64,000 bases of DNA. It comes from an uncultured Thermoleophilia bacterium. Its GTDB lineage: Bacteria; Actinomycetota; Thermoleophilia; UBA2241. Positions 31,942-44,352 of this stretch are shown here, piece after piece (positions within the stretch are counted from its first letter, which is position 1; each line of letters starts with the position of its first letter). Position numbers and translations under genes: made by a program. The notes under the pieces are model-generated. The model saw only the letters and a list, made by a program, of their open reading frames with translations, had not been told where the DNA came from and made no database searches. The DNA is taken from positions 30,443 through 94,442 of the forward strand of contig CAVVGY010000006.1 in assembly GCA_963747935.1 (NCBI GenBank). Direction: 5' to 3'.

Positions 31942-32238
31942 GCGGCGGGCCACAGGCGAGCTGAGCGCCGGTGACGGGCCGGGGAGGACGGACCTCCCCG
32001 GCCCGTCCCGCGTCCGGCGTCCGTACGCGCCGTCCGCCCATCGGGTTCATGCCGCGCAGGGCGGGGACCGGTGGCCGTGGAAGAGGCGGTGCTCAACATC
32101 TGCCTCTACGAAGTGCCGCCGGGCGAGCTGCTCGTGCGCGTCGGCTCGGGCGGCCCGCCTTGCTCAGCGTCCCGCCGCACCATACCCTACCCGGGGAGCG
32201 CGCCGGTGTCTCCGGCGCGCCCGCACGAGGGGAGAGCC

Positions 32239-33003
32239 TTGCCCGACGACACCATCACCGACGACGCAGCCCTGAGCGTGCCCAGTGCGGCCGTGCTGGG
32301 CCGGGCCGCGCCGAGCTTCGTGCTCATCCTGCTCGCCGACGCCGCCGTGCTGTGGGCGGCCGTGGCCGGCGAGTGGTCGGTGCTGGCCGTCGTGATCGCC
32401 TGCGTCATCGACGGCCTGGCCGACGGCGTGCTGGCCTGGCTCCGCGCCCGCGCCTCCTTCGCCGCCGGCTCCGCCACCGACGCGCGCGACGCAGTGCTCG
32501 TGCGCGAGTTCATCAAGACCTACCTCATCGTCGTCGGCGTCCAGGCCGTCGTCGCGTACATGGTGTTCGGCGGGCTGCTGCTCAAGCCGGGCGGCGAGGC
32601 TCCGGTCGCGCCCGGCGCGCCCTTCGTCACCTGGCAGTTCTGGGCCGTGGTGGCCGGCCTCGTGCTGGTGCGCATCCTCACGTACCTCTGGGACTTCGTG
32701 CGCGGCGGCGAGGCCGAGGTGGTCCCGCCGGAGGCGGTCGTGTCGGAGCCGCTCCGCCGCCTCTTCGTTCTGCAGTTCGGCGTGCTGGCCGGCGCCCTCG
32801 TCGTGTACTGGGTGTTCCACTCGGCGCTCGCCGGCCTGGTCGTCCTGCTGATCGCGAAGACGGTCGCCGACCTCGTGCTGGCGGTGCTCGAACGTTTGCG
32901 CGTGGCGCGCATCGTGGCGGCGGTGGCCGCCGGGATCCAGCCGCGCGGAGTGGTCGACCGCCGCTCGCGCGCCCGGCGCGGCGGCCGCAAGCGCCGCCGC
33001 TGA
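32239..33003 (+). CDS. Multi-pass membrane protein (DUF6498-like)
   Basis: Several TM segments, PLRRLFVLQ and KTVADL motifs; TTG start inferred from SD. Confidence 0.6.
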   Translation: MPDDTITDDAALSVPSAAVLGRAAPSFVLILLADAAVLWAAVAGEWSVLAVVIACVIDGLADGVLAWLRARASFAAGSATDARDAVLVREFIKTYLIVVGVQAVVAYMVFGGLLLKPGGEAPVAPGAPFVTWQFWAVVAGLVLVRILTYLWDFVRGGEAEVVPPEAVVSEPLRRLFVLQFGVLAGALVVYWVFHSALAGLVVLLIAKTVADLVLAVLERLRVARIVAAVAAGIQPRGVVDRRSRARRGGRKRRR

Positions 33004-33085
33004 CGGCGCCCGGACTGCGGCGGACCCTCCGGCCGCGTGCCCCGCTTGTCGCCGGCGCGACGGCTGCGTTAGACTGCCCTTGTAG

Positions 33086-33101
33086 TCATCCGGCCGGATG
33101 A
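33086..33101. promoter_or_regulatory. Putative TetR operator TCATCC-GGCC-GGATGA
   Basis: Perfect palindrome just downstream of -10-like TAGACT (33070-33075) before tetR. Confidence 0.6.
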
Positions 33102-33178
33102 ATCCCGGCGAGTCCCGCCGGGGCGCCGGTCATGTCCTGAGGGGTCGTCCTGTGGCTGTCCGCCGACCGCTCGTCGTC

Positions 33179-33766
33179 GTGGAAACGACGGTCGAGCCGC
33201 TGAATCCTACGGCGCAGCGCATCCTCGAGGCCGCCAAGGAACTGCTGGCCCAGAAGGGGTTCTCCGCGCTCACGCTCGAGGCCATCGCGGCTGAGGCCGG
33301 CGTCAACAAGGCGGCGACGCGGTACCACTTCGGCAGCAAGGCTGGGCTGCTCGAGGCGCTCGTCGACGAGATCGTGCTCGATGAGTGCGCGTCCATGGCG
33401 CACGACCTCACCGGCGAGCCCACCCTCGACGAGCGCCTGGACAGCTTCTTCCGGAGCGTGCGCCGCATCGCGGTCGAGCCTGCCACGTTCGGTGGGTTCT
33501 TCGACGTCCTCCCACACGCTCTGCGCGACAAGGCGCTGCGCAAGCGCCTCGTGTACCTCTACGAGGTCTGGTACCAGTGGAACGCCGAGTGGCTGGACCT
33601 CGACGCGCTCGACGACGAGCGCAGGGAGGCGCTCGCCGGGTTGGGCCGGCTCGCAGCGGCCACTATCGACGGCATCGCCATCCAGAGTTCGATCCACGGC
33701 GCCGCCTACGACCCGGAGCCGACGCTGCGGGCCTTCCGGTTCTGTCTGGAGTCCGTGCTCCGCTGA
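33179..33766 (+). CDS. TetR/AcrR-family regulator (start uncertain; ORF opens at 33098)
   Basis: RILEAAKELLAQKGFSALTLEAIAAEAGVNKAATRYHFGSKAGLL HTH. Confidence 0.9.
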   Translation: METTVEPLNPTAQRILEAAKELLAQKGFSALTLEAIAAEAGVNKAATRYHFGSKAGLLEALVDEIVLDECASMAHDLTGEPTLDERLDSFFRSVRRIAVEPATFGGFFDVLPHALRDKALRKRLVYLYEVWYQWNAEWLDLDALDDERREALAGLGRLAAATIDGIAIQSSIHGAAYDPEPTLRAFRFCLESVLR

Positions 33767-33814: not shown

Positions 33815-33876
33815 TTGTCATGGTCACCTGCCTGTGCTAGCGTGCGTCCCGCGATTCATCCCTCCGGATGGATGAA
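33815..33876 (+). promoter_or_regulatory. Sigma70-type promoter plus second TCATCC/GGATG operator
   Basis: TTGTCA (33815-33820)-N17-TAGCGT (33838-33843); TTCATCC-CTCCGGAT-GGATGAA at 33855-33876. Confidence 0.65.
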
Positions 33877-33993: not shown

Positions 33994-34176
33994 ATGCCAA
34001 CAGATGAAGAGATCGTCCATCTCAAGAGCGAGCTCGCGGCGCGACTGGAACTCGTGAACAGCGACCCGGAGTACGAGGGGAAGCCGGCGACCGCGCGCGA
34101 CCAGATCATCCTCGCAGTGGTCGGGCTCGTCGTCCCGGCGATCATGATGATCGGGGGGTGGTTGATCTATGCCTGA
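33994..34176 (+). CDS. 60-aa single-TM protein overlapping the permease start
   Basis: SD AAGGGGG, C-terminal hydrophobic helix, stop overlaps next ATG. Confidence 0.7.
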   Translation: MPTDEEIVHLKSELAARLELVNSDPEYEGKPATARDQIILAVVGLVVPAIMMIGGWLIYA

Positions 34177-35665
34177 CGCACCGAGCAGCATGGAGCGGTC
34201 GGCCATCCGCGAAGCGGCGGAGGGCAGCTGGCCGGTCCTGCCGGGAGAACGCAACTGGGGACTCGTCGGGATCTTCGCGGTCACGATCTCGGCCGGTATC
34301 GCCGCGTGGAGCTACTCCATCGGCGGCGCGGTGTCCTGGTACCTGACCGCCGGCCTGGGGACCATCGCCATGATCGCCGGGTCCCTGGTGGGCATGTACT
34401 TCGTCACGGCGGCGGCGATGCCGGTGAGCGTCAAGTACGGCATCGACACCATCGCCGCCTGCAAGCCGCAGTACGGCACCAAGGGATCCGTGTTCGGGAT
34501 CTTCGCGCAGTACGCCTCGATCGTGGGGTGGAACTGCATCCTGATCATCTTGTTCGGCCGCGCCGCCGCCAACGTGCTCGCGGCCGGCGGCGTCATCGGC
34601 GAGGACTGGGTGTACCGCGTGTCGGTGATCCTCTCGCTCGTCACGATCGCCTACGTGTTCTACCTGGTCATCGGAGGCGCGGATTCCGTCCGCAACAACT
34701 CGATCTGGATCGCCGTGGCCGTCGTGATCGCCGGCCTGGTGGTGCTCTTCAGGCTGCTCACCCAGGTCGGCTGGGACACGATCGCGGCTGGCGAGCCCGC
34801 CTACGCGTCCGGCGACCTGCACCTCGACTACACGCTCGGCTTCGAGATCCTCGTCGCGACCGTGCTCTCGTGGTGGCCCTACATGGGCGGGATCATGCGC
34901 ATGAGCAAGAGCGTGAAGCAGGCCCTGCTGCCCTCGATGATCTGCCTCGGCATGATCACCGGAGTCATCGGGCTCATCGGGCTGTACGCCGGACTCGCGA
35001 CCGGCGATCCCGACCCGTCCATCTCGTTCGTCAAGGTCACCGGCCTGTGGATGGGCATCGTCGCGGTCGTCTTCATCGCCCTGGCCAACATCGGCACCGC
35101 GATCGTCGGCGTGTACGCCACCGGCATCGGGCTCAAGCAGATCCCCGCGCTGCAGTACCGCCTCAACTGGAAGTGGACGACCGTCATCGTGCTCGCGCCG
35201 GTAGCGATCATCGCGGCGTTCGTGCCCAACTGGTTCATGGACCACAGCCTCACCTACATGTACTTCCTCGGCCTGGTGTTCGCGCCCATCTGCGGCATCC
35301 AGATCGCGGACTACTACTTCTTCCGGCACCAGCGGCTCGACATGGTCTCGCTGTTCGACTACACGCCCGCGAGCCGTTATCACTTCTGGGGCGGCTTCAA
35401 CCCGGCCGCGTTCGTCGCCACGGCCGTCGGCTTCTTCGTCTATTGGTACCTGCTGGACCCGGTCACCTACGTCAGTCACAACGCGACCGCGTTCAAGTGG
35501 ATCAGCGCGTCGATCCCGTCGCTGCTCTCCGCGGCGGTGGTCTACGGCGTTCTCACCGCGCTCGTCATCAAGCCGCTGCGCAAGGGCGGGTACGAGCGCG
35601 TCCAGGCGCCGGTCTCCGTGCCCGCCGCCGCGGTGATGGAGACCGCGGGGAAGGCGGGCGAATGA
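34169..35665 (+). CDS. NCS1 / cytosine-purine permease family transporter
   Basis: About 12 TM segments, KYGI...YGTKGS, APICGIQIADYY, GGFNP motifs. Confidence 0.85.
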   Translation: MPDAPSSMERSAIREAAEGSWPVLPGERNWGLVGIFAVTISAGIAAWSYSIGGAVSWYLTAGLGTIAMIAGSLVGMYFVTAAAMPVSVKYGIDTIAACKPQYGTKGSVFGIFAQYASIVGWNCILIILFGRAAANVLAAGGVIGEDWVYRVSVILSLVTIAYVFYLVIGGADSVRNNSIWIAVAVVIAGLVVLFRLLTQVGWDTIAAGEPAYASGDLHLDYTLGFEILVATVLSWWPYMGGIMRMSKSVKQALLPSMICLGMITGVIGLIGLYAGLATGDPDPSISFVKVTGLWMGIVAVVFIALANIGTAIVGVYATGIGLKQIPALQYRLNWKWTTVIVLAPVAIIAAFVPNWFMDHSLTYMYFLGLVFAPICGIQIADYYFFRHQRLDMVSLFDYTPASRYHFWGGFNPAAFVATAVGFFVYWYLLDPVTYVSHNATAFKWISASIPSLLSAAVVYGVLTALVIKPLRKGGYERVQAPVSVPAAAVMETAGKAGE

Positions 35666-37077
35666 GCGACATCCTGACCCGCATGGGCGACGGCTACAGC
35701 GTGGAGCTGACGCTCGAGGAACTCCGCGAGGACATCGTCACCGGCTCGGCGGACGCTGCCCGCAAGGGCAAGATCCCCGTCCTCGAGAACGACGAGGTCG
35801 ACTACCTGGTCGAGATGTTCGCCAGCCCCACGCGCATCTGGGGGGTCGAGCGCGGGCACGAGGCGGTCCTGACCAAGGACGGCTCGACCAACTCGCTGTA
35901 CTCGGCGCAGCTCTCCTCGGGTGTCGGCCTGCCGCTCTCCCGCGAGCAGGCGTTCCGCACGTTCGAGCGGGCCTTCGGCTTCGACACCATGGAGGTCGGC
36001 CACTTCGACTACTCGGTCAAGCCGGCCAAGCCCATCGTCACCCTGGAGCAGACCAACGTCGAAGGCGTGCTCCACAACTGCATCATCCCGGTCTATTACG
36101 GCTTCATGCCGAACCTGGGTCTGTACTACCGGCCCGACGGGCAGTTCCCCAACCCGTCCGACCTGATGCCCAAGGGCCAGATCGCCGAGGCCAGGGCGGC
36201 GACCGAGGAGGCCTTGGTGGCCTGCCGGGACGACGTGATCTGGATGACCGGCAAGATGGCCGAGGTCGGCGTGGACGGCATCAACTACGACACCACCGCC
36301 TCCACGGGCGACGGCGAGTTCCTCGCCACGCTCGAGGCGGTCGAGTGGACGGCCAAGAACACCGACGTCTCCATCGAGGTGGGCATGGCGGCGGAGTGCG
36401 TGCTCGGCTTCCACGGGCAGCTCACCTACGACGGCGAGCGTCTCGCGGGGATGTGGCCGCACCAGCAACTGAAGGTGGTGGAGAAGGCCGGGGCCCACGT
36501 GTTCGGGCCCGTGGTCAACACCAACACGCGCCGGAGCACGCCGTGGAACCTGGCGCGGGCGGTCACGTTCATCAAGGCCGTCAGCGCCGAGGCCACGATC
36601 CCCGTCCACGCCAACGTGGGCATGGGCGTGGGCGGCGTGCCGATGTTCGAGCTCCCGCCGGCCGACGTGGTCACGCGCTGCAGCGCGGCGATGATCATGA
36701 TCGGCAAGGTCGACGGCTTGTAGGTGGGCACAGGCGATCCCAGCGGGATGAGCCTTGCTCACGCGCTGGCTTCCTCGATGGGCGGCATCCGTACCACCGG
36801 AGATCTGGTGGCCCGGATGCAGATGACCCGCAAGATGAGGTTGCCGGAGGCGAAGCGGTTTGTGGCAGACAAGCTCGGCCTGAGCGTGAGGGACATCAGC
36901 GACTCGACGGTCATGCGGGGCGTGCGCGAGGAACTCGACATCGGCGTCATCACCGCCGTGCCGGGGCTTGCGCGCGGTCTCGAGGCCAAAGCGCGCATCG
37001 CGGACCTGCTCGGCATCACCATCAACAGCGTCGAGCGGCTCAAGCGCAAGATGGGCGCATCCGCCCTCAGTCGATGA
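35662..37077 (+). CDS. mtbB: Dimethylamine:corrinoid methyltransferase MtbB homolog with in-frame amber codon (36721-36723, residue 354; predicted pyrrolysine), 471 aa
   Basis: TRMGDG, DTMEVGHFDYSVKPAKP, YGFMPNLGLYYRPDG, VNTNT, GMGVGGVPM, KVDGL-TAG-VGTGDP, GGIRTTGDLVARMQ, REELDIG; both ORF-track halves are in the same frame. Confidence 0.92.
36724..36762 (+). promoter_or_regulatory. Candidate PYLIS-like stem-loop directly 3' of the amber codon
   Basis: GTGGGCA/TGCTCAC, AGGC/GCCT and ATCCC/GGGAT nested stems with AGC loop. Confidence 0.5.
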
Positions 37078-37120
37078 CGGTCGACGCGCTGCCCGGCACG
37101 TAACCAGAGGAGGCACACGC

Positions 37121-38626
37121 ATGGCAACTGTGGAGCCGACGACCGTAGGTCCATACCCGACGCCGTACGCCGCGCCGGCAGATCCACCCATGGACTACAA
37201 GATGTACATCGGCGGCGAGTGGGTCGAATCGGAGAGCGGCGAGCGCTTCGACGTCTGGTCTCCCGGCGATGGAAGTCGCATCGGTTCGGTGCCCAAGGGC
37301 ACTACCGCGGACGTCAAGAAGGCCATCGAGGCGGCCAAGAAGGCGCAGAAGGAGATGGCCGCTCTCTCCATCCCGGCGCGCGCCAAGCTGCTGTTCAAGG
37401 CCAGCGAGATCGCGTACCGGCGCCTCGAGCACGACGCACGCGTGCTCTGCCGCGAATGCGGCAAGACGATCACCGAGGCGCGCAGCGAGATCGAGGACTA
37501 CTCCGCGCCGCACTTCATCGAGGCGGCCGAGGGCATCAAGCGCTACCGCGGCAGGATCAACCCGTCCATCCAGGAAGACACGCTGAACAAGCGCATCCTG
37601 GTCATCCACCAGCCGATGGGCGTGATCGGCATCATCTCGCCGTGGAACTGGCCGCACGACATCCCCAACATCGCGCTCACCCATGCGCTGGCCGCCGGGG
37701 ACGCGGTCGTCATGAAGCCGGCGAGCACGACGCCGTTCAGCGCGCTCATGCTCGCCGAGATCATCGAGGAGGCGGGCTTCCCGAAGGGCGTCGTCAACAT
37801 CGTCACCGGTCCAGGCCCTGTGGTCGGGGAGGAATTGGTCAGCAATCCCGGCACGGCCGCCATCCACTTCACCGGCGAGACGGGCACCGGCGAGCGACTC
37901 ACGCAGATCGCCGGCGTCAAGCGGCTCATGCTCGAGCTCGGCGGCAACGGGCCGCTCGTGGTGTGGGACGACGCGAACATCGAGGAGGCCGTCGAGGCCA
38001 CCATCACCGGCTGCTTCTACCTCGCAGGCCAGGTTTGCACAGCGTCCGAGCGCATCCTCGTTCACGAGGCTGTGCACGACGAGTTCGTCGAGAAGCTGGT
38101 GGCGCGGGCGAAGAAGGTCAAGGTCGGTAATCCGCTCGACGAGGGCACCGACATGGGCCCGCTCAACAACCCGAGCAACGTGGCGAAGGTGCAGGCGCAC
38201 TTCGACGACGCGAAGCAACGCGGCGGCAAGTTCCTCATGGGCGGCACCATCGACGGCATGTACGCCGAGGTGACCGTCGTCGACGGCGTGACCTCGGACT
38301 TCCTCATGGCGCGCGACGAGACGTTCGGCCCCGTCGCGCCGATCATGACGTTCAAGGACATGGACGAGTGTCTGAGGATCGCCAACGAGACGCCCTACGG
38401 ACTCCAGGGAGCCGCCTTCACGAGCAGTCTGCGCACCGCCTTCCTGCTCGGCGAGGGCATCGAGTGCGGTACTGTGCTCATCAACGAGACGAACAACTGC
38501 TGGGACCAGCTCTCGCCGTTCGGCGGCGTCAAGAAGAGCGGCCTGGGGCGCGAGCTCAGCGACTGGTGCTTCGACGAGCTGACCGAGACCAAGCAGCTCA
38601 ACATCGACATCAGCAAGGTGAAGTGA
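37121..38626 (+). CDS. NAD(P)-dependent aldehyde dehydrogenase
   Basis: ISPWNWP, KPAS, FTGE.GTG, LELGGN, GQVCTAS, ETFGPV, PFGGVKKSGLGRE. Confidence 0.93.
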   Translation: MATVEPTTVGPYPTPYAAPADPPMDYKMYIGGEWVESESGERFDVWSPGDGSRIGSVPKGTTADVKKAIEAAKKAQKEMAALSIPARAKLLFKASEIAYRRLEHDARVLCRECGKTITEARSEIEDYSAPHFIEAAEGIKRYRGRINPSIQEDTLNKRILVIHQPMGVIGIISPWNWPHDIPNIALTHALAAGDAVVMKPASTTPFSALMLAEIIEEAGFPKGVVNIVTGPGPVVGEELVSNPGTAAIHFTGETGTGERLTQIAGVKRLMLELGGNGPLVVWDDANIEEAVEATITGCFYLAGQVCTASERILVHEAVHDEFVEKLVARAKKVKVGNPLDEGTDMGPLNNPSNVAKVQAHFDDAKQRGGKFLMGGTIDGMYAEVTVVDGVTSDFLMARDETFGPVAPIMTFKDMDECLRIANETPYGLQGAAFTSSLRTAFLLGEGIECGTVLINETNNCWDQLSPFGGVKKSGLGRELSDWCFDELTETKQLNIDISKVK

Positions 38627-38934
38627 CTCTGCGGTAGAAGGCCGGGAGGCAGGTCGGCAGGGCGGCCGGGGCGGGAGCCCCGGCCGCCCTGCCACGTTTG
38701 ACGCCCGTCGTCCGGTGGGCGCCGGTCCAGGGGGGATGCCGGGTGTCGCAGCGCTCCGTCACGCTTGCCTCGGCGGCCTCGCCTTCTATACGATATCGCT
38801 ATACCACGATGCGATATGTGAGGCCGGGTACGGGGCGATTGCCCGGCCTTCGCCGTCGTTCTACGATTGCGAATCTGTGGGAGCCTGTCCGTCCGTCCCG
38901 GGCGGGAGCTTGAACCTTGGAGGGGGTGCTCAAC

Positions 38935-42137: not shown

Positions 42138-42648
42138 CGCGCCCGGCCGCGCGCGACCGGCGGCCCCGGGCACGATGAGTACCGCCGAGGGGCGGGCGGC
42201 CGGAAGCGCCGCCCGCCCCTCGCGCATCTTGGCGGCCGGAAGCGCCGCGCCCGCCATCCTCGCGCTTGCCGGAGCCCGCTCCGCCGGGACAGGCGAAGTG
42301 CCGCAGGGGCGCTCTGCAACTGTAGAGCCGATGTAGATACATCCGGGGCCTTCGCCTCTGTGTGTGGCCCGGAATGTATCTACTCCGTGTCTACGTTCTC
42401 AGAGGAGGGCTGCACCGTGTTGCCGGCGGCAGCGGTCAGGGTCGGAGGGTGGCGGCGGATCGGCGGTGGCGGGCGGGTGGCGGCGTTCGGCGAGCGGAGG
42501 GTGGCAGGCACACACACTCCTGCACCCTGTGGGCGGCCTCTATTGGCGGATACCCGCCGGGGATACATGAGGCGGGCCGGCAGGGGTGACGGCGGCGATA
42601 CGGATACCCGCCGGGTATCCGGATCCAGAGCGCCCGAACTGCGACCTC

Positions 42649-43728
42649 CTAGAGGAGGCCGTCGAGGGTGGCGATGAGCACGCCGGCGACGGTGACGACC
42701 GCCGCCAGCGTCAGGCGCAGGCCCGGATGCTCGCGCAGGAAGACGACGCCGAAGACGATGGAGAACACCGGCGTCGTCGCCATGATCAGCATCGCCAGGA
42801 CCGGCCCCAGCTCGACGATGGTGAGGTAGAACAGCACGCTCACCGACGCCTCGAGCATGCCGGCCAACACGATGAGCCACATGACGTGGCGGCGCGCCGC
42901 CGGCGTCAGCGGGCGCGCCGTCAGTCTGGGGCGGCGCCACAGCAGCAGGCCGCCGAGCATCAGCGCGCCGCACACCTGGCTCAGGAGCATCATCGTCGCC
43001 GTGGCGCGGCCGTAGGACTCGGCGGCGAGGTCGATGAGCACCGGGCCGAGTCCCCAGCCGGCGGCCGTGAGCACCGCCAGGCCGATGAGCTTGGCCTTGG
43101 ACGCCGGGGTGCGGCCGGCCGGCGCGGGACGGACCGATGGGGCGGAGGGGCCGTCCGGGGCGCGGTCGGCGGGGAGCACGTCGCCGTGGGCGGCGCCGGC
43201 GAGCGTGGCCGCGCGGGTCAGCTCCGATCCCGGTGCGTCCTCGCCGTCGTCCATCCAGCGCGAGATGAGCACCACGCCGGCCATGGTCACCGCCATGCCG
43301 GCGAGAGTCGCGACTCCGAACGCGGCGCCGACGATGATCCAGGCGAAGAACGCCGTCCACACGGGGTCGGTGCTGGTGATCGGCGCGATCACCGCGACCC
43401 GTTCGCCGCGCAGCGCGAAGTAGTAGGCGTTGAACGCGATCACCCACGTGCCGACGGCGGAGAGGGCTATCCAGCCCGCCGCCTCCGCGTTGATGCCGAA
43501 GCCGTTGTCCCAGAGGCCGAACACGGTGAGCGGCACGGTGATCACGAGCAGGCCGCAGATGGCCACCAGGCGGATGAAGAAGTTGACCGCGACGGGCGTC
43601 ACCGACGCCAGGATCTTCTTGTTCACCACCACGACCAGGGCCCACAACGCGGTCATGACGAAGGCGGCGGCGATCCAGGCTGTGTAGGTGCTCGTGGCTT
43701 CCCCTCCGAGGCTCCCGAACGGTCTCAC
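42649..43728 (-). CDS. EamA/DMT-family transporter (start uncertain)
   Basis: Two 5-TM repeats, IAPITSTDPVW and ATTPVFSIVFG.VFLRE. Confidence 0.82.
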   Translation of the reverse strand: MRPFGSLGGEATSTYTAWIAAAFVMTALWALVVVVNKKILASVTPVAVNFFIRLVAICGLLVITVPLTVFGLWDNGFGINAEAAGWIALSAVGTWVIAFNAYYFALRGERVAVIAPITSTDPVWTAFFAWIIVGAAFGVATLAGMAVTMAGVVLISRWMDDGEDAPGSELTRAATLAGAAHGDVLPADRAPDGPSAPSVRPAPAGRTPASKAKLIGLAVLTAAGWGLGPVLIDLAAESYGRATATMMLLSQVCGALMLGGLLLWRRPRLTARPLTPAARRHVMWLIVLAGMLEASVSVLFYLTIVELGPVLAMLIMATTPVFSIVFGVVFLREHPGLRLTLAAVVTVAGVLIATLDGLL

Positions 43729-43809
43729 TCCCCGCCGCAGTCTACCCCCGGCAGGTATACTCCCGGGAACGAAATGTATCCCTGCGCCGGGGCGCAGAGT
43801 GGAGGACGC

Positions 43810-44352
43810 ATGAAGACGTCAGTGGGCAAGACCAAGCTCGAGATCGCCAGCGGCGACATCACCCAGCTGGAGGTGGACGCGCTCGTGGCGCCGGCCTCCA
43901 CCGAGATGTGGATGGACCACGGCGTGGCGGCGGCCATCAAGCGCACCGGCGGCGACGCCGTGGAGAAGGAGGCCGTGCTGCAGGGGCCGGTCAAGGTCGG
44001 CGAGGCCGTCATCACCACCGGCCACGACCTCAAGGCCCGCTGGGTCGTCCACACCGCGATCTCGGACGACTACCCGAGCGGCCACGCGGACTCGCGCTCC
44101 ATCACCGCCGCGACGCGCTCGTCGCTGGAGGCCGCGCACCGCGCTCACGCGCGGTCGGTGGCGCTGCCCGCGTTCGGCACCGGCGCGGGCTCGTTCCCGC
44201 TCTACCAGTGCGCGAGCCTCATGGTCGCGGAGACGGTGGCCTACCTCAAGGAGCACCCCAACTCCGGGCTCCGTCACGTGATGTTCTCCGTGTACGACGA
44301 CGCGGCCAGGGTGGCGTTCAAGAACGCCATGCTCGGCATCAGCCGCTTCTAG
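43810..44352 (+). CDS. Macro domain protein
   Basis: GDITQLEVDALV, GVAAAI, GEAVITTG, VALPAFGTGAG. Confidence 0.88.
   Translation: MKTSVGKTKLEIASGDITQLEVDALVAPASTEMWMDHGVAAAIKRTGGDAVEKEAVLQGPVKVGEAVITTGHDLKARWVVHTAISDDYPSGHADSRSITAATRSSLEAAHRAHARSVALPAFGTGAGSFPLYQCASLMVAETVAYLKEHPNSGLRHVMFSVYDDAARVAFKNAMLGISRF

Follow-up and report, generated by a model that had tools for sequence, protein, structure and literature searches.

A pyrrolysine-type MtbB within a recurrent permease and aldehyde dehydrogenase module of an uncultured Thermoleophilia bacterium

We analyzed a window of 64,000 nucleotides from an uncultured Thermoleophilia bacterium (contig CAVVGY010000006.1 of assembly GCA_963747935.1, here called C6), which carries an operon encoding a small protein (pep60), an NCS1-like permease, a homologue of the pyrrolysine (Pyl)-dependent dimethylamine:corrinoid methyltransferase MtbB and an aldehyde dehydrogenase (ALDH), behind the gene of a TetR-family repressor. 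The module recurs in other genomes and metagenomes. On balance, we lean towards reading it as a TetR-repressed accessory operon for the uptake and catabolism of an N-methylated amine, which would be demethylated via a corrinoid protein and oxidized via an aldehyde. The features concerned are the following, in a window of about 68% G+C.

33098..33766, + strand: TetR-family repressor gene (PF00440)
33855..33876, no strand: 22-bp palindrome TTCATCCcTCCGGAtGGATGAA, between the TetR gene and pep60; candidate TetR operator
33994..34176, + strand: pep60 gene, an open reading frame (ORF) of 60 codons
34169..35665, + strand: NCS1-like permease gene, 498 aa
35662..37077, + strand: mtbB, 471 aa (PF09505 and TIGR02368)
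36722..36724, + strand: in-frame TAG of mtbB, residue 354, read as pyrrolysine
37121..38626, + strand: ALDH gene, 501 aa (PF00171)
38656..38693, + strand: hairpin with a perfect 17-bp stem and a 4-nt loop, 30 nt past the ALDH stop

The gene coupling claimed in an earlier reading of the DNA letters (hereafter the sequence-only reading) is plainly visible. The pep60 TGA (34174-34176) overlaps the permease, whose ATG lies at 34169, by 8 nt, the permease TGA and the mtbB ATG at 35662 share a 4-nt ATGA, and 43 bp separate the mtbB stop from the ALDH ATG at 37121, which is preceded by GAGGAGG. Since the gene set recurs jointly in 18 other loci, its clustering goes beyond chance.

Fifteen relatives of the permease were aligned, and species-representative genomes (25 loci) and metagenomes (53 loci) were scanned, which together with the window makes 79 loci, some of them near-duplicates (e.g. 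L092/L022 and L088/L027). Neighbouring genes were counted with a tblastn panel made of the window proteins and of neighbours met in other loci. In 19 of the 79 loci, and in three gene orders, an mtbB gene lies no more than 5.5 kb away from the permease, and an ALDH or a tungsten-type aldehyde oxidoreductase (AOR) is encoded in 40 of the 44 loci whose sequence continues downstream of the permease for 1.8 kb or more. When the count is restricted to the 25 well-flanked loci, where the sequence reaches 3.5 kb or more downstream and 2 kb or more upstream of the permease, ALDH or AOR is present in 24 and an N-methylamine enzyme in 18 (MtbB in 7, MttB in 6, a DAO+GCV_T protein resembling dimethylglycine dehydrogenase, or DMGDH, in 4, and an FMN/Fe-S flavoprotein in 4). 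All 12 well-flanked loci with a permease at least 65% identical have ALDH or AOR; seven have MtbB and four the DMGDH-like enzyme. The order TetR-MtbB-NCS1-ALDH is seen in L017, L021, L098, L078 and others, while the closest relative, L079, has TetR-pep60-NCS1-MtbB-corrinoid-ALDH with 88% identity for MtbB and 90% for ALDH. TetR-pep60-NCS1-AOR-reductase-MtbB occurs in L112 and NCS1-reductase-ferredoxin-AOR-MtbB in L104. The sequence-only reading had described an unusual operon and left it to a survey of gene neighbourhoods whether the synteny extends beyond this contig; it does, MtbB and ALDH or AOR accompanying the permease in 19 of the 79 loci.

The same core is joined to other enzymes in other phyla. 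In Chloroflexota and Limnocylindrales, the pep60, NCS1 and ALDH genes are followed by that of a ~825-aa protein with the Pfam domains DAO+FAO_M+GCV_T+GCV_T_C, by its domains a dimethylglycine or sarcosine dehydrogenase architecture; in L019 a threonine-aldolase-like domain comes after, or is fused to, the DMGDH-like protein. In Neobacillus and Bacillus, a ~670-aa Oxidored_FMN+Pyr_redox_2 flavoprotein precedes NCS1 and then ALDH, accompanied by sigma-54 or PucR regulators, and HpaB genes near two of the Bacillus loci hint at arylethylamines as substrates there. Desulfobacterota show the order (non-Pyl MttB)-pep60-NCS1-reductase-ferredoxin-AOR with sigma-54 activators. In two Desulfamplus loci, pep60-NCS1-AOR is directly preceded by a glycyl-radical enzyme, its activase, a BCCT carrier and a non-Pyl MttB (L039:5-4135), or by a glycyl-radical enzyme and a non-Pyl MttB (L033:29-3667), and these upstream genes look like a choline-lyase-type cluster joined to the module. 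Non-Pyl MttB genes are thus found in the clusters of L033 and L039 and also in that of L029, further non-Pyl MttB genes stand beside TetR-MtbB-NCS1 in the actinomycetotal loci L022, L092, L084, L108 and L126, and L105 has a pterin-binding methyltransferase beside the module. An NCBIfam scan of the DMGDH-like, FMN/Fe-S and AOR neighbour proteins returned no equivalog-level name. Across lineages, the permease and the aldehyde oxidizer are the constant part and the enzyme removing or oxidizing N-methyl groups the variable one. The proposal of the sequence-only reading, an N-methyl amine whose skeleton is oxidized via an aldehyde, agrees with the finding that the permease and an aldehyde oxidizer stay together in four phyla, accompanied by varied N-demethylases.

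Sodium/proton exchange genes were also encountered near the permease. An NhaA-type Na+/H+ antiporter is encoded directly downstream of permeases of 45-49% identity, with PucR upstream, in L040, L109, L113, L116, L117 and L121, and other Na+/H+ exchangers lie near the module in L021, L023 and L098.

The mtbB product matches PF09505 with 633.4 bits (cut-off 25) over residues 5-462 of 471, spanning the TAG, and scores 541.1 bits on the equivalog model TIGR02368 (cut-off 369.1). By these profiles, it is a homologue of the Pyl-type dimethylamine:corrinoid methyltransferases. Its relatives in the protein databases end at 353 aa, the 117 codons past the TAG match the family profile to its end, and the TAG column is shared by all 48 aligned MtbBs. 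A PDB sequence search found no MtbB among solved structures. The 48 full-length sequences (8 from the window's own genome, those from permease loci and 28 from a search of the class) were used for a maximum-likelihood tree rooted at its midpoint, no archaeal outgroup being included. Placed in this phylogeny, as the sequence-only reading had proposed, the permease-linked MtbBs form a clade of their own (starred in the tree; 98/96 support) that includes the window copy and in which 10 of the 12 rows are permease-linked, the remaining two, L054 (ALDH-linked) and L058, both lying at contig ends. Its sister comprises the paralogues on contigs C5 and C3 of the same genome (69% and 59% identity), and those on C13 and C7 are 46-49% identical to the window copy. 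A second starred clade contains L017, L078, L112, L051 (AOR plus corrinoid) and MttB-linked copies.

The host assembly (3.24 Mb in 17 contigs, 84.6% complete) gives 8 matches to PF09505, each with exactly one TAG. Contig C5 encodes a tRNA-Pyl(CUA) (L011:4167-4239) and, above the respective cut-offs, the PylS C-terminal domain (317-320 bits), PylB (442 bits) and PylC (329 bits), with a corrinoid protein gene also present on this contig. The PylD match on this contig is partial (138.7 bits against a cut-off of 150; model positions 1-165 of 266); its ORF (L011:2943-4211) is followed by a 94-codon ORF in another frame (L011:3850-4134) and then by tRNA-Pyl, an arrangement that may reflect a frameshift, perhaps an assembly error. 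Judged by this gene set, the host is a pyrrolysine user whose pyl genes lie on C5, outside the window, which agrees with the earlier remark that no pyl gene adjoins the operon. MtbB was found in 39 of 201 sampled genomes of the class, every listed copy with one TAG; these include 33 of the 35 sampled genomes of the window's family, most with at least 7 scored copies.

Searching the genome by tblastn revealed ~14 corrinoid proteins, ~25 MttB-superfamily genes (five of them Pyl-form-like), one MtmB, two pterin-binding methyltransferases, five AOR genes and one DMGDH-like gene; no glycyl-radical enzyme or BCCT carrier was found in the same search. By its gene content, the genome is that of a methylamine specialist. 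The other mtbB copies stand in varied surroundings: TetR-MtbB-corrinoid-MttB-MttB(Pyl) behind a threonine-aldolase-like gene on C5, APC permease-MtbB-HAD on C3, MtbB-MttB pairs with TetR and APC permease genes on C13, and the vicinity of an MttB(Pyl) gene on C7. In the tree, these paralogues (C3, C5, C7, C13; L002-L008, L012-L016) group in context-specific clades, namely threonine-aldolase/TetR/corrinoid, APC permease/HAD and MttB-paired. The sole MtmB homologue, on C3, is split into two ORFs in different frames (L013:2879-3436 and L013:3336-4262) that match model positions 1-148 and 157-450, which may be due to the Pyl codon together with a frameshift, or to an assembly error.

All ~14 corrinoid protein genes lie on contigs other than C6, where tblastn found none. 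The sequence-only reading was therefore right that no such gene adjoins the window mtbB, but the lack is not a trait of the system. L079 carries one between its mtbB and ALDH genes (the protein scores 213.5 bits on TIGR02370, cut-off 215.3) and L078 and L021 have one nearby, in all three cases within the module.

The permease matches PF02133 with 58.2 bits (cut-off 23.5) over residues 24-428 and stays far below the NCBIfam cut-offs of TIGR00800 (46.4 against 353.1 bits) and CytX (87.3 against 309.9), which makes it, by profile, a member of a distant, uncharacterized subfamily of the NCS1 superfamily. We found 162 relatives; a PDB sequence search gave no match and a search of the protein Atlas only generic 'purine-cytosine permease' clusters. 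Its gene context points to amines or aldehydes as cargo over nucleobases, hydantoins or vitamins, although permeases that are 50% identical may well differ in what they carry. The idea that the methanogen carriers MttP/MtbP are of the NCS1 type was ruled out, the Methanosarcina methylamine permease MttP being, according to the accessible part of a preprint, a 10-helix transporter of the DME family (bioRxiv 10.64898/2025.12.02.691841). An NCS1-like transporter is for this reason non-canonical for mtbB.

The protein pep60 is hydrophilic in its N-terminal part, has a single hydrophobic helix towards its C terminus and matched no family in Pfam or NCBIfam. Homologues of 52-72 aa are found in Actinomycetota, Chloroflexota and Desulfobacterota, always directly upstream of the permease gene and often overlapping it, and such a gene is present in 35 of the 79 loci. 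They share the motif RLxLV..DPxYEG...D...G..P...GW, with R17, P25, Y27, G29, G44, P48, G55 and W56 invariant and a hydrophobic C-terminal part. Complex prediction with alignments of our own making scored 0.84 for pep60 and permease against 0.01 for the best control, the mark applied being one reached by 116 of 157 solved complexes and by 2 of 215 mismatched pairs. At least 82% of the contacts are common to the runs, the partner predicted local distance difference test score (pLDDT) is 82 or higher, and the model places the pep60 helix against permease residues 60-91. We thus predict that pep60 is a small subunit of the permease, and the pair would, whatever its substrate, add a new candidate to the small proteins that serve as transporter subunits. 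The one analogy that we found in print is that of MttS and MttQ, which accompany the DME-family MttP, a carrier unrelated to the NCS1-like permease, as far as the accessible text of the preprint goes (bioRxiv 10.64898/2025.12.02.691841). A comparable gene pair was seen on plasmid pLDW-10 of Arthrobacter crystallopoietes (L130; NZ_CP018865.1, 201372-220769), where a 69-aa ORF overlaps a 39%-identical 'cytosine permease'. Nearby, this conjugative plasmid also bears genes for an ALDH, a luciferase-like monooxygenase, a flavin reductase, an amidohydrolase, a BCCT carrier and a PucR regulator; plasmid searches returned generic annotations only, and the L130 genes carry no functional labels.

The TetR protein scores 59.1 bits on PF00440, its BetI-type C-terminal domain (PF13977) reaches 25 bits, under the cut-off of 27, and its true start may lie 20-35 codons downstream of the annotated position. 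Homologues of 53-79% identity are encoded beside the module in 18 other loci. When 0.99 Mb was searched for the palindrome TTCATCCcTCCGGAtGGATGAA with up to 4 mismatches, all 14 matches, two of which are duplicate regions, adjoined this module's TetR gene (L017, L026, L077-L080, L091, L097, L122, L124, L127 and the window), and the variant TTCAACCCACCGGTGGGTTGAA lies upstream of the TetR gene in four loci. On this distribution, the palindrome at 33855-33876 is a candidate TetR operator.

The fourth gene of the operon encodes, by profile, an NAD(P)-dependent aldehyde dehydrogenase (PF00171, 501.5 bits, residues 34-492), whose translation contains ELGGNGP and GQVCTA, which we take to be the catalytic Glu and Cys motifs. 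Its best NCBIfam scores remain far below the cut-offs for lactaldehyde dehydrogenase (414/650), succinate-semialdehyde dehydrogenase (SSADH; TIGR01780, 390.3/646.4) and betaine-aldehyde dehydrogenase (BADH; TIGR01804, 376.5 against 668.6, and PRK13252, 360.8 against 593), and the best PDB matches are a mixture of an unnamed ALDH, SSADHs and BADHs. Orthologues beside the permease are 65-92% identical in the close group.

In the mechanism that we favour, a ligand would free TetR from the palindrome at 33855-33876, and the two-part carrier, a predicted complex of the NCS1-like permease and the single-helix pep60, would import the compound. MtbB, with TAG354 read as Pyl, would place an N-methyl group on the Co(I) form of a corrinoid protein encoded elsewhere, from which a pterin-binding methyltransferase would, going by what is known of the family, move the methyl on to tetrahydrofolate. 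The ALDH would oxidize an aldehyde arising from the carbon skeleton of the same compound, a step for which relatives use a tungsten-type AOR. The order of these events could take two forms. MtbB may act on a substituted methylamine or dimethylamine, with N,N-dimethylglycine as the favoured candidate: a choline-family amino alcohol would be oxidized, by way of its aldehyde, to glycine betaine or dimethylglycine, and this product would then be demethylated. Such a route would account for the BetI-like TetR, the MttB genes, the BCCT and glycyl-radical neighbours and the dimethylglycine-demethylase architectures of the alternative partners, and requires that MtbB accept a substituted amine. Alternatively, a compound R-CH2-N(CH3)2 may be split into an aldehyde and dimethylamine, MtbB then taking ordinary dimethylamine; this leaves MtbB canonical and needs a lyase or dehydrogenase that was not seen. 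The stronger claim that the permease-linked MtbB clade as a whole consists of Pyl-dependent methyltransferases for a substituted methylamine or dimethylamine and not for free dimethylamine, with the two-part carrier importing a choline-type compound and ALDH or AOR oxidizing its aldehyde, we advance tentatively and consider rather unlikely. Its leading candidate is again N,N-dimethylglycine, the alternatives being sarcosine or an N-methyl amino alcohol.

Several observations weigh against the amine catabolism that we favour, beginning with its main gap, the chemistry that would make the aldehyde, which is not encoded in the clusters. Among the neighbours in the 25 well-flanked loci, where alcohol or choline dehydrogenase, aminotransferase, amine oxidase and C-N lyase families were looked for, none was assigned as aldehyde-forming, save the glycyl-radical enzymes of two Desulfobacterota loci. 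The window itself has no corrinoid gene, and the ALDH fits no characterized subfamily in NCBIfam or PDB. Module loci are non-independent samples, some metagenome loci being near-duplicates. Of 61 genomes of the family, only 4 have a close permease orthologue (at least 72% identity), for which reason we call the module accessory. The Bacillus FMN/Fe-S enzyme matches best the FadH/OYE model of the mycofactocin system, below its cut-off, and its role as a demethylase is suggested by architecture only. As to MtbB, it passes the dimethylamine equivalog cut-off, its alignment has 78 invariant and only 6 clade-specific columns, and the stretch flanking Pyl, DGL-O-VGTGDP.GMS..HALASSMGGIRT, is conserved. 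Its sequence offers no positive sign of a new substrate, nor do the surroundings of Pyl look obviously remodelled. A substrate larger than dimethylamine, as inferred in the sequence-only reading, is therefore not shown for this enzyme.

These last features are what an ordinary dimethylamine system would display, one in which the permease and pep60 import dimethylamine or another simple methylamine, MtbB demethylates it with a corrinoid protein from another locus, and the ALDH travels along while serving some unrelated purpose. In this genome, further mtbB copies likewise have no adjacent corrinoid gene and stand beside APC-type permeases, and an MtbC-like corrinoid gene occurs in the operon of close relatives. 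Such a system would nevertheless leave unexplained why an aldehyde oxidizer is tied to the permease in 40 of 44 informative loci, MtbB-free Bacilli and Chloroflexota included, and why ALDH co-varies with the permease in the close group. The replacement of ALDH by AOR in the same position suggests selection for the aldehyde-oxidizing function, and the known methanogen methylamine carrier belongs, in the accessible part of the preprint, to another family. We consider this explanation unlikely.

It is less likely still that mtbB is a recent, functionally unlinked insertion into an older pep60-NCS1-ALDH module serving a non-methylated amine or aldehyde. The MtbB-free core is indeed the commoner one (e.g. 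L018, L026 and the Chloroflexota loci), the window mtbB splits permease and ALDH genes that are directly adjacent elsewhere, and the close permease orthologue is patchily distributed in the family. Such an insertion agrees poorly, however, with 19 MtbB loci in three different arrangements, with a starred clade of linked MtbBs apart from the other paralogues of the genome, with other N-demethylase types filling the same neighbourhoods in other phyla and with an mtbB start that overlaps the permease stop. That the TAG is a true stop and mtbB a truncated or decaying gene appears highly improbable. TAG is not rare in this genome, terminating 389 of 2015 long ORFs by a rough ORF caller, and PylD is partial; yet the reading frame matches the profile to its end beyond the TAG, exactly one TAG is present in all 8 own copies and in every listed copy of the 39 genomes of the class, tRNA-Pyl is present with PylS, PylB and PylC above their cut-offs, and the partial PylD may be an assembly frameshift. 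The N-methylated amine module thus remains the reading that we prefer.

The operon is preceded by a Lon protease gene and the TetR gene and followed by sdhCDAB, and it likely ends at the hairpin 38656-38693. This hairpin has no T tail and is for that reason unlisted in the consensus terminator scan; together, the scans for sigma-70 promoter and terminator consensus gave nothing useful in this 68% GC region. A link to sdhCDAB, raised as a speculation in the sequence-only reading, was not borne out: none of the 78 other loci has SdhA next to the module, and this, together with the hairpin after the ALDH gene, separates the operon from the sdh genes. In L017, L078 and L127, the TetR gene closely follows Lon. 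Between the two genes of the window lies a stretch of 75% G+C (31971-33101) holding a 376-codon ORF on the + strand and shorter ones on the - strand, with no Pfam match in any, and past the sdh genes a 588-codon ORF (42586-44352) ends in a Macro domain (PF01661, 83 bits). Among sequencing runs, none of those searched covers at least half of the stretch. A soil RNA library, which may contain DNA, holds short contigs ~90-100% alike over parts of the permease, mtbB and ALDH genes. These belong to relatives, and one spans the mtbB TAG with no listed difference there.

To our knowledge, Pyl-dependent methyltransferases are known for three substrates only, mono-, di- and trimethylamine. Here, one MtbB clade sits in a conserved module whose carrier, small subunit and aldehyde oxidizer would imply a larger methylated amine, and dimethylglycine-type demethylases take the place of MtbB in other phyla. 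If this is true, the 22nd amino acid would have a broader chemistry, the large MtbB expansions of soil and wetland Thermoleophilia would be explained, and the methylotrophic methanogens of wetlands would face competition from a further, bacterial sink for methylated amines. Should the enzyme accept a substituted amine, the module would provide an O2-independent route taking choline and glycine betaine demethylation past dimethylglycine, and the MtbB paralogues of this Thermoleophilia family, 7-8 in each genome, would have radiated into different substrate specificities.

Corrinoid-dependent N-demethylation of larger methylated amines is carried out in anaerobic bacteria by non-Pyl members of the MttB superfamily, such as MtgB (glycine betaine), MtcB (carnitine), MtpB (proline betaine) and MtyB (gamma-butyrobetaine). 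The proposed module resembles these systems in its chemistry and differs in its enzyme, a Pyl-containing MtbB as opposed to the MttB fold family without Pyl. Their products are tertiary dimethylamines, and we know of no description of the further demethylation of these. The betI-betT-betBA loci unite a TetR with a BetI-type domain, a transporter and an ALDH, as does the window (where the BetI match is sub-threshold); their transporter is of the BCCT type, whereas the window has an NCS1-like permease and an ALDH below the BADH cut-offs, and none of the neighbours scanned in any locus was assigned as a choline dehydrogenase or oxidase. The likeness to dimethylglycine demethylases (DMGDH/DMGO; DgcAB) lies in the DAO+FAO_M+GCV_T neighbours of Chloroflexota and the FMN/Fe-S neighbours of Bacilli.

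The mtbB/mtbC and mttCBP operons of Methanosarcina share with the window a Pyl-dependent MtbB family with a single Pyl codon and the placement of a substrate-specific methyltransferase next to a permease. According to the accessible part of the preprint (bioRxiv 10.64898/2025.12.02.691841), the Methanosarcina carrier is joined by MttS, a small subunit of 49 aa with a single helix; pep60 would be its counterpart in the window. As far as the same text goes, that carrier belongs to the DME family, and the one in the window is NCS1-like. The methanogen operons include the corrinoid protein MtbC, whereas the window operon has a co-operonic aldehyde dehydrogenase and no corrinoid gene, and the methyl acceptor is coenzyme M in Methanosarcina and would be tetrahydrofolate in the bacterial host of the window.

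In a thawing permafrost mire, Pyl-encoding mttB and mtbB are expressed by metagenome-assembled genomes of Actinobacteriota, according to the accessible part of the published account (PMC10805028), which has in common with the present case the phylum, the Pyl-type mtbB and a wetland or soil setting. That part assigns the genes to tri- and dimethylamine and is silent on the permease-ALDH module, on the small subunit and on the paralogue clades. The literature outside subscription-only papers, to which our search extended, yielded no paper on NCS1- or ALDH-linked mtbB or on Pyl in Thermoleophilia. While Pyl-MtbB in Actinomycetota is thus known already, what would be new here is the conserved module together with its two-part carrier.

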